Below, piece after piece: positions 19,975 to 26,997 of a stretch of DNA of 64,000 nucleotides (position 1 is its first letter; every line of letters starts with the position of its first letter). The translations under genes were made by a program, and so were the position numbers. Source of the DNA: Candidatus Omnitrophota bacterium. Its GTDB lineage: Bacteria; Omnitrophota; Gorgyraeia; Zapsychrales; Zapsychraceae. Under the pieces are notes generated by a model. That model made no database searches, was not told the DNA's origin, and was given only the letters and a program-made list of their open reading frames with translations. The stretch spans positions 65,737-129,736 of the forward strand of contig JAGQKV010000012.1 in the NCBI GenBank assembly GCA_020429915.1. The letters run 5' to 3'.

Positions 19975-20475
19975 CTAGTCTAAAAATTTAATGCTTAAAT
20001 TCTGAGATTCCCTGAATTCTTGTTGATCACTGAATTCACGGAGAATTCTGCTGATCTTCTTTACTAAATTGCCTACTATAGACTTGTAACTCTTGCTAAA
20101 CAATAAACGACCTTGGCGTTGAAAACGCACCACATCAAGTTCACCACCGTCCCGCGATAATTGAATTTCTATATCCTTCAGAAACGGCTCCCGCATAGTA
20201 CTATATACCGTAGCATCATGAACTAGTACTTTGACTGAAATATCATAGTCTGCATGACTTATTCGGTAACCTTTTGCAGCCAACCCGCTGGCTATTTGCC
20301 GCGCCAACTCTTTCTGAAAGACTGAATAGTCGGGATTGATTCTCCGCACATAAGATGGATCTTGTAAGTCTTCCGCTGAGCATGTACCAGCGAGAATAAA
20401 GGTTATCATCCAGCAAACTGTACCACCTCTCGAAAAAAACCTTAGATACTTCAACACTCTTTTCATGAAGATCAT
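19975..20475 (-). CDS. Putative immunity lipoprotein for the RHS C-terminal toxin
   Basis: Immediately downstream of the RHS gene, with the start ATG overlapping the RHS stop (ATGA). Signal peptide plus LAGTC lipobox-like Cys. Markedly AT-richer than the surrounding genome, like the toxin tip. Confidence 0.6.
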   Translation of the reverse strand: MIFMKRVLKYLRFFSRGGTVCWMITFILAGTCSAEDLQDPSYVRRINPDYSVFQKELARQIASGLAAKGYRISHADYDISVKVLVHDATVYSTMREPFLKDIEIQLSRDGGELDVVRFQRQGRLLFSKSYKSIVGNLVKKISRILREFSDQQEFRESQNLSIKFLD

Positions 20476-23400
20476 CGGTTCATAAAATGCTCGCGCAATC
20501 GAGCGGGATCGGTAAATCCAAAATTGCTATACTGATTCCTAGGGATATGGTAACCAGCCGCACGCACAGCACCTAGCGCCCAGTCGGTACAATTTGCCGT
20601 TAAGGCGAAAGCACCAACAGGGGAATCAATATATGTTTGCACCATATTGGCCTGCGCCGCGTTTATCGGATAAACTTTTGAAATATCGGCATAGTCACCG
20701 AGTGCAGTGCCGGGCATTTCTTCTAATCTTAAGCCCGGGGATGAACGTCCAAGTACCCAACTGGCATGACTGTTCGACCTCTTCAAAGGCCATTTTCCAA
20801 AGTACTGCCGCCTACCATCCGGATATATCAGTCCAACGCCTGCATGCCCCTCACCCACCCGAAGTATGAGAGCATGATCTGGTCGCATACTTGAAGGGTT
20901 GGCTTGCATAATACGTCTAATTTCATCCGCTCTATTTTGGGCAACTTGTGCATGTGAATTAAATCCATCTCTTTTAACAAAGTTTTGTGCATGTTCGCTG
21001 CTTAAAAAACCTAAGACCGCGCCTGATCCAGCACCCGAAATAGCGCCTTGACCAATATCCTTGCCAACTATAGCGGATCCGGCAGCGCCTATTGCTCCAC
21101 CTTCAACGGCAAAAGCTCCAGATCGCAAAAACGGATTCACAACATCATGGAATCCAGCGGCGCCAAACACCGCAGATATTCCAAAACCAACCGCGGCTCC
21201 TGCCAAGGTTTTACCAAGCCCGGATCCGGAAAAAAAAGCCTCACCCAAACTTAGGGTAGAATTAATCAAACTGAATGCCTGAAAAGCGGCATAGGGATTA
21301 AAAACTGTGCCAATGAATGTAAATATTGCGGCAGCACCCGAGACCAGCGATTTCCAGAATTTCTTAAACCAACCATGCCCACTCGGATCTACATTGTTCA
21401 CCGGGTTATTTCCGGCGTAGGCGTAACGGTTAAAAGTTTGAGGATTTTCGGCGGACTGTACTATCGTATCCGGCGAAATAAACCTTCCCAACTCCGGATC
21501 ATAATAGCGGGCCTGCATGAAGATGAGGCTGCTTTCGGGGTCTTCATAGTGTTGGGTAAAGTAATAGCGACCCTGGTCGACAGGGTCGTCGTACACCACA
21601 TGACTGAAGGCCGTTGCCCCGAACGGTCGGTATTCACGGATTTCGCGGATGGCCCCGTCACGGTCGGTGGCCACATTCGTTCCACCAAGGTGATCCGTGT
21701 GGTAATAAAAAAATCCGTCGCCGCGCACGGTGGCGATGCGTTGGGACCCGAGGTAGATATGGCGGCTGTCGCCTCCCGGGCCCATTTCATAGAGCGAACC
21801 GACAAATTCCGTGATGATCCCGCCGACGGACTTGCTGGTCCGCCCGCCGTCGCCGTCGTACTCGTAAGTCGCCTTTACCATACCGTCTTTTCGAATCCGG
21901 CGCAACCGATTTTCCATGTCATATTCATACTCGGTCAGATCCTGAGCCTCGCCCAAAACGATAACTTGCTTGGCGGTCATATTGCCGTTATCGTCATACA
22001 CATAGACCGCGCGGGTTTGGCTGACCGGATCAAACGTGTCACACACGGCATGCGGTCCCCCGCCGCAATTGGCGTTGTAGGTATAGGTCTTGCCGTCCTT
22101 TTCCATAATATTACCGAGCACATCGTATTCGTAATTCCTGAAACCATAGCGTCCGGGATTATCGGCCGTCTTCAGCCGGTTGAGATGGTCATAGGTGAAC
22201 GTTTGGGTCGCGGTGTGAACGGCGTCAACAATGGTGAGGATATTTCCGGCAGCGTCATAGCCGTAACTCAGGTCTTGAATGTCGCCGGAGGCCCGGGCCC
22301 AACCGTTCCCGTCCTCCAGCGGCTCCGTTCCGGGGGCAAAGGTTTTCTTGTGCAGCAGCCGCTGGTTAAATGCATCAAAAAAATAGTAAGTACGGGTGCC
22401 GTTGCCCATCCGCAGATACGTCATCTGCCCGAAGACATTGTAGCGGATATCCTCCGCAAAGGTCTGCACGCTGCGTTCAATGGCGAACTCATCGAGAATC
22501 CCCAGCGAATAGCGAGCGATCTGCGACGCGTCGATGGATGTGACCAGCCCGTCGGCGCTGGTATCGGCGCGTTCACGTTGCTCCTCGGTCGACGAAACCA
22601 GCTGCAGCGCGATACGGACCGCCAGCGAGGCATCAATCGCGGTAATGCGCCCGTCGCCGCTCACGTCTCCGTATAACATGTTCGGATCTCCCTGACTGAC
22701 CCGCTCCACCTGCCCGGCGGCGTTATACGCATATTTAAGCTTGATCCCCCGCGGATACTTCAAGGCAATGAGGTTGCTCAAAGCATCGTACTCACGGCTG
22801 ACATCATAATTGATCATGCCCACCGTCTTTGTCGATACCATCTCCCGCCCCAGCTCATCGTAATGAAAACTCGTTCCGCCGTTGCCGTAGACCACATTGA
22901 CCAAGCGTCCGGCAGCATTATCCTGCCCCAGGATATCCTCGTCGTATTCATAGAGGACCGTGGAACCGCCGTCACTAAATGCCTTACGCGTCAACCGATT
23001 GAGCTCATCGTAGTAGAAGGTGATCACCCGGCCCATGGCGTCGGTCTGGGTCTTAAGGTTTCCGTTGGCATCATAGGTATACGCCCAACGGCCCATGTCC
23101 GGGTCTTCCAACCAACGTTTGCGGCCGAGCGTATCGTAACCGATCCGTGTGGTGACCGCTGCACCGTCGGCATCCGCGCGGGTGGTAATGAGATTATCCT
23201 GAGAATCATAATCGTACTCGGTGGCGGTATAGAGTTCATAAGGTTCGGCCGGGTAGTCCGGGGATCGACCGTCCGCGCCGCTGTAGACCTCCTTGCGGAT
23301 CAGCCGGCCGAAGGCGTCATAATAAGATCTTTGCATATGCCCGTTTTCGTCGTACGACGTGGCGGTCCAATCGTCATACTCGACGTTGGAGAAAGTAACC

Positions 23401-26876: not shown

Positions 26877-26969
26877 AATGGCAACTCCTTGGCTGGGAGA
26901 TTACGTGTGGGATCCGGTCGGAATGAGAATATAGGGATGGATCGCGGCGAATCGAATTGTTCTGAACAC

Positions 26970-26997
26970 ATTATACCGCGAAAAATAAATTTGTCAA
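26970..26997 (-). promoter_or_regulatory. Near-consensus sigma70 promoter for the RHS gene (TTGACA-16-TATAAT) with an AT-rich UP-like region
   Basis: Minus strand reads TTGACAaatttatttttcgcggTATAAT. AAGGAG RBS lies 8 nt before the ATG at 26876. Confidence 0.65.

Follow-up and report, generated by a model that had tools for sequence, protein, structure and literature searches.

A predicted Sec-exported RHS toxin of Candidatus Omnitrophota with an exchanged tip, a putative immunity gene, and a likely dockerin-cohesin tether

What does a giant RHS protein do on an Omnitrophota chromosome, how did it come by its C-terminal tip, and how could it reach a target without a TcA or T6SS partner beside it? 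These questions are raised by a 64,000-nucleotide stretch of Candidatus Omnitrophota DNA (hereafter, the window) in which four co-directional genes encode, in order, an RHS toxin, a putative immunity protein, a TPR-like lipoprotein, and, last, a cohesin (Table 1). We favor, at a probability of about 0.75, a single explanation in which this is a chromosomal polymorphic-toxin locus with a Sec-exported cocoon, a swapped tip and immunity gene, and a cohesin-dockerin tether.

The cluster is flanked by housekeeping genes (neighborhood TatC-CCC-HemW...TPR-cohesin-polyprenyl synthase). Its four genes would be expressed from one strong promoter, for which the candidate is the sole perfect sigma-70 site in the region, which lies in the AT-rich stretch of 168 nt that follows hemW; in total, promoter-like sites across the region were no more numerous than chance would give. 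The stop codon of the toxin gene and the start of the 166-aa ORF overlap (ATGA). The TPR lipoprotein gene, which is of native composition, follows on the same strand after a 30-nt gap, and its product is 75% and 96% identical in two related loci (L015 and L017, respectively).

Table 1. Features of the toxin locus, in window coordinates
Feature	Position	Strand	Details
Candidate promoter	26970..26997	-	sigma-70 consensus TTGACA-16 nt-TATAAT, 12/12 match
Shine-Dalgarno AAGGAG	26884-26889	-	upstream of RHS toxin gene, read from sequence
RHS/TcB-TcC-fusion polymorphic toxin gene	20472..26876	-	2134 aa + stop codon; HMM and PDB matches
Predicted Sec signal peptide	26781..26876	-	aa 1-32; basic residue, IIASLLFLIA, then ADA|QS
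SpvB N-terminal domain	26256..26720	-	aa 53-207; Pfam PF03534, E 1.2e-34
FG-GAP beta-propeller region	24927..25805	-	aa ~358-650; Pfam FG-GAP_3, E 1e-15, three stretches
TcdB_toxin_midN domain	24540..24920	-	aa 653-779; Pfam PF12256, E 1.1e-24
YD/RHS repeat shell	21633..24539	-	aa ~780-1748; RHS_repeat E 2.6e-37, TIGR01643 E 8e-22
Type I dockerin	22509..22673	-	aa 1402-1456; Pfam Dockerin_1, 38 bits, E 1.8e-9
RHS-associated core	21375..21632	-	aa 1749-1834; Rhs_assc_core TIGR03696, E 2.6e-20
Foreign-composition cassette	19975..21460	-	last ~28 core codons + 300-aa tip + putative immunity gene
Pre-toxin hydrophobic glycine-zipper segment	21045..21374	-	aa 1835-1944; hydropathy analysis
Toxin domain	20475..21044	-	aa 1945-2134; putative permuted NlpC/P60 (H-box/NC) cysteine hydrolase
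Putative immunity gene	19975..20475	-	166 aa, or 163 aa from ATG at 20466
TPR-like lipoprotein gene	19345..19944	-	199 aa; lipobox LLLAGC; Pfam TPR_12 sub-threshold, E 1.2e-5
Secreted single-cohesin gene	18818..19291	-	157 aa; signal peptide ...AVHA|LE; Pfam Cohesin

The original prediction, made from the sequence alone, had described both overlapping ORFs (2134 and 166 aa) and read the larger as a Sec-signal protein in which SpvB-N, FG-GAP, a YD/RHS shell, and an RHS core precede a PxxxxDPxG hinge. HMM searches returned the same order of domains, the leader was predicted from the translation and hydropathy (maximum 3.19; signal peptides at the locus were called by eye and hydropathy only), and the hinge motif NPVNNVDPSGH was located at aa 1824-1834, the core ending in PVNNVDPSGH. 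The absence of a TcA partner, T6SS, PAAR, or VgrG from the window had also been noted, and our scan of window ORFs of at least 150 aa likewise found none of these domains. The prediction had made no mention of the shell dockerin or the downstream cohesin gene, of the nature of the toxin domain and the glycine-zipper segment before it, or of the export signal on the small protein.

This architecture combines traits of two known groups. As in the Photorhabdus TcdB2-TccC3 and Yersinia YenB-YenC cocoons, SpvB-N, a beta-propeller, TcdB_midN, and a YD shell are followed by an aspartyl-protease core that frees an encapsulated C-terminal cargo (cleavage being predicted here); the N terminus matches PDB chains 4o9x, 6h6e, and 4igl, and the PDB matches of SpvB-N are TcdB2, YenB, and SpvB chains. 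The YD shell and the PxxxxDPxG end of the RHS core are likewise shared with Rhs proteins of Escherichia coli and Salmonella, Dickeya RhsA/B, and WapA, and the shell matches the solved Rhs shells 8h8a, 7q97, 8qja, and Tse5 (8cp6). Three cleaved solved chains, Rhs and teneurin-like (8h8a, 1152 aa; 8qja, 1879 aa; 9ifo, 2144 aa), end one residue past the position aligned to aa 1833, which points to an autoproteolytic cut after H1834. The toxin would be exported by Sec as a closed TcB/TcC-like cocoon (SpvB-N, FG-GAP propeller plug, YD shell), with the aspartyl-protease core predicted to cut after DPSGH(1834) and the 300-aa cargo staying inside. Bacillus subtilis WapA resembles it in having a Sec leader, a surface-attachment module, and no T6SS parts. 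In contrast to these Rhs/YD toxins, the N-terminal half here is of the TcB type rather than PAAR/VgrG-linked or cell-wall binding, the attachment module is a dockerin within the shell rather than an N-terminal wall-binding domain, and the host is an Omnitrophota MAG.

The dockerin interrupts the shell at a loop that joins two YD repeats. Its best PDB sequence match, over the whole module, is the Clostridium thermocellum Xyn10B dockerin (2ccl_B, E = 2e-7); as in cellulosomal type I pairs, the alignment runs end to end, both DxSxDGxxxxxD Ca2+ loops are present, and a cohesin is encoded nearby. Unlike in those pairs, the dockerin is internal rather than C-terminal, its carrier is a toxin rather than a glycoside hydrolase, and the putative partner is a lone 135-aa cohesin module with no scaffoldin or anchoring domains. 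The cohesin scored 26.1 bits in Pfam (gathering threshold, 24.1) and its L015 orthologue scored 30.3 bits (E = 5.5e-7); cohesin matches in a PDB sequence search with the protein were all nonsignificant. The dockerin insert is kept in four related loci (L001, L015, L016, and L017; dN/dS = 0.13) and the cohesin gene in three (L015, L016, and L017); compared with a sister MAG, the cohesin gene is the fastest-evolving of the locus (dN/dS = 0.30). Both are kept in every orthologous locus long enough to hold them, down to 62% body identity, which suggests a surface tether independent of TcA and T6SS. Dockerin-type surface proteins have been proposed to serve attachment in Omnitrophota (bioRxiv 10.1101/2023.11.21.568195), and polymorphic toxins have been described, in general terms, as containing dockerin and cohesin domains (PMC13483458). 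Most likely, the shell dockerin binds the co-encoded secreted cohesin and tethers or assembles the cocoon at the cell surface. Such a tethered cocoon would act in contact-dependent attack, with delivery, which would use no TcA or T6SS genes at the locus, as the least certain step of the mechanism. The shell dockerin, unusual as a docking module, may illustrate how toxins of this type remain at the cell surface.

A competing account, which we regard as possible though rather unlikely, accepts the locus as described and makes the cohesin and TPR genes unrelated neighbors. The dockerin would instead bind cohesins of other (perhaps giant) surface proteins, attach to a carbohydrate or to a ligand on the prey surface, or stabilize the shell through Ca2+. 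Because the whole neighborhood is syntenic, housekeeping genes included, the adjacency of cohesin and RHS genes is weak evidence of a functional link and could be a chance inheritance. No anchor is visible in the cohesin protein itself, and other dockerin-rich surface proteins occur in Omnitrophota (bioRxiv 10.1101/2023.11.21.568195). In homologues, the dockerin loop is mostly without an insert; large inserts occur in P0004, P0005, and P0122, and the loop can hold unrelated binding-type modules (fn3, Laminin_G_3-like, and DUF1349), suggesting a general site for display of target-binding domains. Against this account, the cohesin gene is on the same strand, at most ~1.2 kb away, across intergenic gaps of 30 and 53 nt in which no terminator-like site was called; it is the sole cohesin match among the scanned window ORFs; and dockerin and cohesin occur together wherever an orthologous locus is long enough for both.

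The tip begins with a segment of ~110 aa (18% Gly, 18% Ala) with three hydrophobic stretches and glycine-zipper Pfam matches, all subthreshold. Every family member long enough to include this segment has it together with the toxin domain, and it is constrained relative to the sister MAG (dN/dS = 0.12), as is the toxin domain itself (dN/dS = 0.03). The latter matched no Pfam family and belongs to a rare tip family (30 representatives in 1.84 billion proteins), whose members always lie behind an RHS core, including in a differently built 3147-aa SpvB/FG-GAP/RHS/PT-HINT protein. Its putative catalytic residues, H2011 (EGHAG) and C2096 (NCTDWA), are in permuted order; across the family the His is nearly invariant and the Asn-Cys invariant. 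An AF2 model (pLDDT 81, pTM 0.80) places the Cys at a helix N terminus. The domain is related to TseH, its closest structural relative, by fold only: a family profile did not recover the TseH structure 6v98 among PDB sequences even at E = 10, and 6v98 was not among the Foldseek matches of the model, the best of which was Aichivirus 2A (probability 0.91). As in TseH (Vibrio cholerae VCA0285) and Tox-Act1, a His in a GHAG motif precedes the Cys nucleophile. In contrast to TseH, the domain has its own NCxDWA signature and a predicted activity, is RHS cargo rather than a free T6SS effector, and is preceded by the conserved glycine-zipper segment. Pseudomonas aeruginosa Tse5 is an Rhs cocoon with a pore-forming C-terminal fragment, its cargo carrying membrane-targeting hydrophobic helices of the glycine-zipper type; here, unlike in Tse5, an enzyme domain stands behind the glycine-zipper part, and delivery would not be by T6SS.

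In a target, the glycine-zipper segment may enter the membrane or pass through it, and the hydrolase, fold-related to TseH, Tox-Act1, LRAT, and YiiX, would work from the periplasmic side, on acyl bonds of membrane phospholipids or, with lower probability, on peptidoglycan. The toxicity of TseH is confined to the periplasm, where TsiH neutralizes the effector (PMC4453574). Tox-Act1 and TseH, both permuted NlpC/P60 toxins, work in the periplasm, display phospholipase activity, and are paired with membrane-associated immunity proteins (PMC12994826).

The history of the tip can be read from orthologous loci with the same TatC-CCC-HemW neighborhood. L001 (protein P0002) and L015 are syntenic with the window locus (78% and 72% DNA identity), with bodies ~75% and ~62% identical to that of the window protein. 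In both, similarity vanishes at the same DNA breakpoint, window nt ~21460, and the tip and downstream lipoprotein gene are unrelated to those of the window; in L015, similarity resumes at nt 19945. The tail of the window core, QSAENPQTFNRYAYAGNNPVNNVDPSGH, resembles the cores of P0122 and P0133, which carry the same tip, and not that of the orthologues. L015 also retains, at the same position, a homologue of the immunity gene without its toxin (33% identity over 144 aa, E = 5e-16). These results support joint replacement of the tip and its immunity gene in a single block, the orphan being the classic displacement signature. Block replacement through core recombination, a variable tip followed by its cognate immunity gene, and orphan immunity genes left downstream are all likewise found in Rhs/YD polymorphic toxins. 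The block (21460..19975) would have come from an AT-richer donor, through recombination in the conserved core; in the L001 and L015 lineages, the tip would be lipase-like and paired with a lipoprotein immunity gene of its own, and the L015 orphan would be a retained copy of an older immunity family.

The 166-aa ORF is probably the immunity gene for the tip, as proposed originally; the stop-codon overlap, the foreign composition shared with the tip, purifying selection (dN/dS = 0.29 versus the sister MAG), and the L015 orphan support this role. It matched no family in Pfam, NCBIfam, or PADLOC, and its structure model was of low quality (pLDDT 47.5). P0150, a 163-aa protein starting at the ATG at 20466, is identical to it along all of its length (NCBI MCA9394074, Ca. 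Omnitrophica MAG), and orthologues of 83 to 84% identity stand beside this tip in L006, L016, and L017. In three further tip-family loci (L002, L003, and L004), a small ORF comes directly after the tip; its N terminus is a hydrophobic leader resembling a signal, and it has no detectable homology to the window's gene. The N-terminal export signal (...ILAGTCSA|ED) implies an envelope target; export, shown for TsiH, is here predicted from this leader, and the protein may neutralize the toxin in the producer's own envelope.

This gene bears on whether the protein could instead be the BC part of a three-component Tc (ABC) toxin directed at eukaryotes, with TcA encoded elsewhere and no immunity function for the small ORF. 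We consider this improbable. SpvB, FG-GAP, and TcdB_toxin_midN are the signature of TcB, and the best PDB sequence matches of the N terminus are TcdB2-TccC3 and YenB. However, neither the 64 kb nor four syntenic loci contain a TcA-type domain, TcdB_toxin_midC had no Pfam match in the 2134-aa protein, and the protein, a natural single-chain fusion, has its own Sec leader. Also unlike a Tc cocoon, it has a shell dockerin, an antibacterial-type cargo fold (the structure closest to it is that of the antibacterial effector TseH; PMC4453574), and an adjacent putative immunity gene. This exported small gene is closely coupled to the tip, moves with it, and survives as an orphan after tip replacement, which points to self-protection against an antibacterial toxin rather than to an anti-eukaryote cargo.

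Composition agrees with an imported cassette. Overall G+C falls from 0.568 in the body to 0.480 in the tip and 0.403 in the downstream ORF, and GC3 from 0.668 to 0.375 and 0.395. Among 150-codon windows from the 37 other genes of the window, GC3 was 0.71 ± 0.04 (minimum, 0.587; n = 219), and that of the RHS body was 0.675 ± 0.034; tip windows reached only 0.33 to 0.42 and the small ORF 0.40 (z = −6.9 to −9.0), and 0 of 253 background windows had a GC3 of 0.45 or less. At z of −7 to −9 against this background, the break is far beyond chance. The AT-richness originally claimed for tip and downstream gene, and its reading as C-terminal displacement of a toxin/immunity cassette, were thus borne out by a composition that is not uniform across the hinge, by the shared breakpoint and nonhomologous tips of L001 and L015, and by the orphan immunity gene. 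Two details needed correction: the background is 55.5% G+C in the window and ~57% in the gene body, rather than ~60%, and the break begins not at the hinge codon but ~28 codons upstream, inside the core (nt ~21460-21500, aa ~1795-1806).

Could the AT-rich 3′ segment nevertheless be native, reflecting a Gly/Ala-rich composition or selection for low expression on a tip that was always part of the gene? In a sister MAG (~92% DNA identity), this tip and this immunity gene are both present, dS is similar across the locus, and every part is under purifying selection; P0122, a BC scaffold 36% identical to the window protein, bears a 35%-identical tip, a pairing compatible with an old association of tip family and RHS clade. 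This account is nonetheless very improbable, as the drop occurs at synonymous third positions (0.67 to 0.38), most strongly in the Gly/Ala-rich part, where such codons would raise G+C; it runs through a separate gene and halts at the next gene boundary; and the orthologues match in the body and not in the tip, their similarity breaking off sharply at one shared point. The L015 orphan, moreover, has a near-native GC3 (0.61), so the immunity family has no intrinsic need for AT-richness. The similar dS argues against transfer after the split from the sister MAG, and import would date to between the split from the L001 and L015 lineages and that later split.

Least probable of all is a T6SS-delivered Rhs effector with PAAR, VgrG, and chaperone genes outside the window: the majority of Rhs toxins characterized in Gram-negative bacteria travel by T6SS, the YD region and core match several solved T6SS Rhs shells, and TseH is a T6SS effector, but neither the window nor the syntenic loci hold a T6SS gene, the N terminus carries a Sec-type leader, SpvB, and FG-GAP rather than a PAAR, prePAAR, or VgrG-binding region, and Sec-exported periplasmic or surface proteins are out of reach of the cytoplasmic T6SS loading pathway. 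The 2134-aa protein itself is present at 100% identity (P0001) in ENA metagenome assemblies.

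The RHS toxin gene is the first of four co-directional genes. Its stop codon overlaps the start of a small ORF, the immunity candidate (ATGA); a TPR-like lipoprotein gene (lipobox LLLAGC) follows after a 30-nt gap, and the gene for a secreted 157-aa cohesin-domain protein comes after a further 53 nt. A convergent polyprenyl synthase gene bounds the cluster downstream. The promoter match ahead of the cluster is perfect (TTGACA-16-TATAAT), and the toxin ATG is preceded by an AAGGAG ribosome-binding site. The products of the small ORF, the next two genes, and hemW are 100% identical to MCA9394072-76 from a Candidatus Omnitrophica/Omnitrophota metagenome-assembled genome (MAG), all of which save HemW are annotated as "hypothetical"; several metagenome assemblies contain identical DNA, and the metagenome protein P0001 is identical to the toxin. 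The remainder of the 64-kb window consists of housekeeping genes, such as those for purine and biotin synthesis, tatC, and hemW.

Both ORFs are as originally called. HMM searches upheld the predicted domain order of the toxin (SpvB, FG-GAP, RHS repeats, RHS core, NPVNNVDPSGH), and the toxin N terminus reads like the claimed Sec leader (a basic residue, IIASLLFLIA, and ADA/QS, by reading and hydropathy). The SpvB N-terminal domain, beta-propeller, and TcdB mid domain (midN) fused to an RHS shell are traits of a Tc BC subcomplex; the YD/RHS repeat shell and the core ending in a PxxxxDPxG hinge are those of Rhs/YD polymorphic toxins. midC (PF12255) was absent from the toxin in the Pfam search. 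We rejected a classical Tc (ABC) toxin because no TcA translocator was found in ORFs of at least 150 aa of the 64-kb window or in the syntenic loci L001, L015, L016, and L017. A T6SS effector was dismissed because the N terminus is a Sec-type leader plus SpvB, not PAAR or a VgrG-binding region; in agreement with the original prediction, no TcA, T6SS, PAAR, or VgrG domain was detected in the scanned window ORFs of at least 150 aa.

Both conserved Asp positions of the core are kept, D1803 (SPDT) and D1830 (DPSG), and the solved cleaved Rhs/teneurin-like chains 8h8a (1152 aa), 8qja (1879 aa), and 9ifo (2144 aa) stop at the equivalent of aa 1834, one residue past the position aligned to aa 1833. 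Given this Asp pair and these chain ends, predicted autoproteolysis would free a 300-aa cargo beginning at G1835.

Features of the RHS toxin cluster and its surroundings (nt, window nucleotides; aa, residues of the RHS toxin unless stated otherwise)
Feature	nt	aa	Strand	Support or remark
Promoter match	26997-26970		
RHS toxin gene	20472-26876		-	2134 aa
SpvB		53-207	-	PF03534, E 1e-34
FG-GAP_3		between SpvB and TcdB_toxin_midN	-	PF13517
TcdB_toxin_midN		653-779	-	PF12256, E 1e-24
YD/RHS repeats (shell)			-	Pfam RHS_repeat E 2.6e-37; TIGR01643 E 8e-22; solved Rhs shells match
Shell loop with dockerin	~22480-22690	1397-1465	-	
Type I dockerin		1402-1456	-	Pfam, 38 bits
RHS-associated core		1749-1834	-	TIGR03696 E 2.6e-20; hinge PVNNVDPSGH aa 1825-1834
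Small ORF (immunity candidate)	19975-20475		-	166 aa
TPR-like lipoprotein gene	19345-19944		-	
Cohesin-domain protein gene	18818-19291		-	
AT-rich stretch	28149-29044			G+C 0.36-0.41; AT skew 0.69
Lys/Ala-rich ORF	28418-28690		+	~85-90 aa
Large ORF	44630-49822		-	1730 aa; LysM, 20.6 bits, aa 1543-1606 of this ORF

The toxin tip (the last 300 aa, after the hinge) and the small ORF are AT rich, as originally observed. GC3 drops from 0.668 in the toxin body to 0.375 over the final 300 codons, and that of the small ORF is 0.395. The background, sampled from 37 other genes in 219 windows of 150 codons, is 0.71±0.04 (minimum 0.587), which puts the tip and the small ORF at z = -6.9 to -9.0. None of the background windows had a GC3 of <=0.45. 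The overall G+C content, which had been put at ~60%, is actually 55.5% for the window. The compositional break had been placed at the hinge codon; GC3 already declines from aa ~1795-1806, slightly upstream of it.

We compared four related loci with the window, two of them close (L016 and L017, from the sister MAG GCA_020429985.1) and two distant (L001, encoding protein P0002, and L015). The sister MAG, with ~92% DNA identity, carries the same tip and small ORF. Its dS to the window is alike along the locus (0.22-0.36; toxin domain, 0.53), and this similarity along the whole locus indicates that the cassette of tip and small ORF is older than the split from the sister MAG. Both distant loci sit in a TatC-CCC-HemW neighborhood, as does the window (L001 body, 75% protein and 78% DNA identity; L015, ~62% protein and 72% DNA identity), and the genes downstream in L015 are those of the window (TPR, cohesin, polyprenyl synthase). 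DNA similarity of L001 and L015 to the window stops at nt 21460, and that of L015 returns where the TPR gene starts, at 19945. At the protein level, both align to the window at ~85% as far as ...PDTIV, and their tips are unalignable with that of the window past DPSG; the tip is thus polymorphic, as predicted, rather than conserved with the body. The tip found in L001 and L015 is unrelated (DPSGN-PIIGAxIGAxIGG..., then a GFSQGG lipase-like motif), and the 123-aa lipoprotein encoded after it is likewise unrelated to the small ORF of the window. The final ~28 core residues of the window (QSAENPQTFNRYAYAGNNPVNNVDPSGH) match P0122 and P0133, two other carriers of the tip, better than the window's own orthologues, which places the recombination joint within the core, at ~aa 1806. 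Different cassettes, a common breakpoint, and an orphan homologue of the small ORF in L015 together support displacement of the tip and immunity block at the C terminus, and the original prediction was borne out overall in both observation and interpretation. Swappable tips are a textbook property of RHS toxins, and the swap itself is of an ordinary, well-known kind; this previously unannotated locus is an unusually clean natural case, with two cassettes across four loci, an orphan immunity gene, and a shared breakpoint within the core.

The alternative cassette (L001:15500-16789; L015:15080-16386) opens with a glycine zipper (IIGALIGALIGG), has the GxSxG motif (GFSQGG) with a faint Abhydrolase_2 match, and is followed by the lipoprotein, which has an LxGC lipobox. 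Both cassettes of the locus thus look membrane directed. GC3 of the alternative tip is also lower than that of its body (0.41 versus 0.71 in L001; 0.54 versus 0.64 in L015). Gene calling splits the L015 RHS gene (L015:9615-16012) into three successive ORFs (1216, 348, and 553 aa), and the gene is either a pseudogene or affected by frameshift errors (the contig is of low coverage, and its name carries "2x"). Immunity-bearing metagenome contigs from several independent assemblies (L007 and L010-L013) stop 650-800 nt upstream of the immunity gene (window ~21100-21270), inside the tip and just past the hinge; this could reflect strain-level junction variation or an assembly artifact in the AT-rich segment. 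In a Dehalococcoidia MAG (L004:1-2535), a tip homologue and an exported ORF precede an orphan fragment of an RHS core and then another tip of a different kind, which begins at DPSGEFWF. This is a classical displaced-cassette array from an unrelated phylum. In the window, we found neither orphan cores nor additional tips nor flanking repeats.

The orphan in L015 is a 171-aa ORF between the L015 cassette and the TPR gene, with 33% identity to the small ORF over 144 aa (E 5e-16 in a search space of 1e9 residues). The window-type tip was found nowhere in the L015 locus. C-terminal displacement classically leaves an immunity-family gene whose toxin is gone downstream of a newer cassette, and this orphan gives the strongest evidence at hand that the small ORF is probably an immunity gene. 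The resulting orphan-immunity trail across lineages is one of three less ordinary features of the locus, beside the cargo and the dockerin-cohesin pairing described below. The small ORF co-swaps with the tip and is under purifying selection; compared with the sister MAG, its dN/dS is 0.29 (84% aa identity) and that of the toxin domain 0.03, which fits a functional, fast-evolving partner for the toxin. Its N terminus starts with a basic n-region, continues with a hydrophobic core of 13 residues, and then reads CSA/ED (by reading and hydropathy), and the ORFs that follow tip homologues in three other loci (L002, L003, and L004) have hydrophobic leaders too. BLASTP, phmmer, and hhalign detected no homology between the small ORF and these post-tip ORFs; those of L003 and L004 are weakly alike (E 5e-4), the only such pair. 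The check for co-travel of tip and immunity gene covers few loci, with a 7-sequence alignment leading to one metagenome and three genome loci. The small ORF matched no known immunity family in Pfam, NCBIfam, or PADLOC, and an AlphaFold2 model of its product (2 sequences; pLDDT 47.5) was too poor for a fold search.

The last 200 aa of the toxin matched no Pfam or NCBIfam family at E values up to 10, bar weak Gly-zipper matches. Among 1.84 billion cluster representatives, searched exhaustively with HMMER, only 30 matched at E <=1e-3, and a DP[ST]G-hinged RHS core precedes the tip domain in each member that reaches far enough upstream; the carriers include a 3147-aa SpvB/FG-GAP/TcdB_midN/RHS/DUF1349/fn3/PT-HINT protein. 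Two modules are conserved in the family: a hydrophobic segment of ~110 aa that is rich in Gly and Ala (18% each), with three hydrophobic stretches and subthreshold Gly-zipper Pfam matches, and a globular domain in which a His (EGHAG) is nearly invariant and an Asn-Cys pair (NCxDWA) is invariant. In an 18-sequence alignment, H77 is kept in at least 90% and N161-C162 is invariant. The AlphaFold2 model of the tip (18 sequences) was confident (pLDDT 81, pTM 0.80), with a helix (162-172) that begins at the Cys and a strand (78-83) after the His. As modeled, the domain has the traits of a permuted NlpC/P60 enzyme, namely, a papain-like alpha+beta fold, a His that precedes the Cys nucleophile, and a Cys that opens a helix. 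Aichivirus 2A was the only credible Foldseek match (probability 0.91). We take the structural relatives of the domain to be permuted NlpC/P60 or "H-box/NC" papain-like enzymes, in which His comes before Cys. A weak PDB match to BtpiA (E 0.67) was treated as chance. A tip profile search of PDB sequences did not recover TseH (6v98), and the tip does not group with TseH at the sequence level; the model points, at the superfamily level, to a permuted NlpC/P60 hydrolase (the TseH, Tox-Act1, LRAT, and YiiX group).

TseH contains a GHAG motif, and its toxicity is confined to the periplasm, where TsiH neutralizes it (PMC4453574). Tox-Act1 and TseH, both permuted NlpC/P60 toxins, have phospholipase activity, and the Tox-Act1 immunity protein is membrane associated (PMC12994826). 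By analogy with these relatives, and from the export signal of the immunity candidate, we infer that the tip is a putative acyl hydrolase, cutting ester or amide bonds, that would act in the periplasm or at the membrane and would seek the membrane through its glycine-zipper segment; peptidoglycan is a possible substrate. This undescribed family of ~30 representatives, which joins a glycine-zipper segment to a predicted permuted NlpC/P60 hydrolase, would carry the recently recognized lipid-targeting TseH/Tox-Act1 group over to RHS cargo.

By its sequence, the RHS shell contains a genuine type I dockerin, which aligns end to end with the Clostridium thermocellum Xyn10B dockerin (2ccl_B; 61 residues, E 2.3e-7) and has both Ca2+ loops. 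It is placed between two YD repeats (...YAYNAAGQVERVSQG and ...AEDIRYNVFGQM...), in a loop that is insert-free in most homologues; P0004, P0005, and P0122 have inserts of hundreds of residues there (fn3, Laminin_G_3-like, or DUF1349). Mostly empty but elsewhere holding varied large inserts, the loop is an insertion hot spot of BC-type RHS shells, presumably exposed on the outer face. The only other "dockerin" match among 120 homologues, in P0018, was rejected as a faint cross-match within the FG-GAP region, with no real insert.

The cohesin-domain protein consists of a signal peptide and a single cohesin domain, without an anchor of its own. Pfam support is thin (26.1 bits, and 30.3 for the L015 orthologue, against a gathering threshold of 24.1), and cohesin matches among PDB sequences were not significant. 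Every orthologous locus that spans both positions (L015, L016, and L017) has dockerin and cohesin together; since the whole region is syntenic, this adjacency is weak evidence. The cohesin gene is the fastest evolving of the locus (dN/dS 0.30 and 80% aa identity versus L017), compared with 0.06-0.10 for the RHS body, 0.06 for the TPR protein, and 0.02 for the polyprenyl synthase. The cohesin and immunity proteins both evolve several-fold faster than their neighbors in this comparison.

A dockerin in the hot-spot loop and a cohesin two genes away offer a possible answer to how BC cocoons without TcA or T6SS are delivered. We consider it unlikely, though conceivable, that such cocoons use one YD-shell loop as a plug-in site, here with a dockerin docking on the secreted cohesin, perhaps held by the TPR lipoprotein, to form a surface-tethered, contact-dependent weapon. 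Its ultra-small bearer would possibly be predatory or epibiotic. If true, Tc/Rhs cocoons would gain a new mode of delivery, with the fast-evolving cohesin as part of the weapon, and the pairing makes a TcA- and T6SS-independent route testable. Public MAGs label every gene of the cluster "hypothetical," and the host phylum adds to the interest. We know of no isolates of Omnitrophota, which are suspected to be host dependent or predatory. A narrow literature search found no description of a dockerin inside an RHS shell beside a cohesin gene. Dockerin and cohesin domains of polymorphic toxins have been noted in general terms only (PMC13483458), and dockerin-type surface proteins of Omnitrophota have been proposed as attachment devices (bioRxiv 10.1101/2023.11.21.568195).

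Two further ORFs of the window stood out. One is extremely Lys/Ala rich, with KKKA(T/V)KKKA repeats like histone H1 or Hc1, a strong AGGAGG ribosome-binding site, and a clean hairpin-plus-T-run terminator after it; this ORF accounts for the AT skew and low G+C of the stretch in which it sits. The other encodes a large uncharacterized protein with a borderline LysM as its sole Pfam domain; giant surface proteins are known from this phylum.
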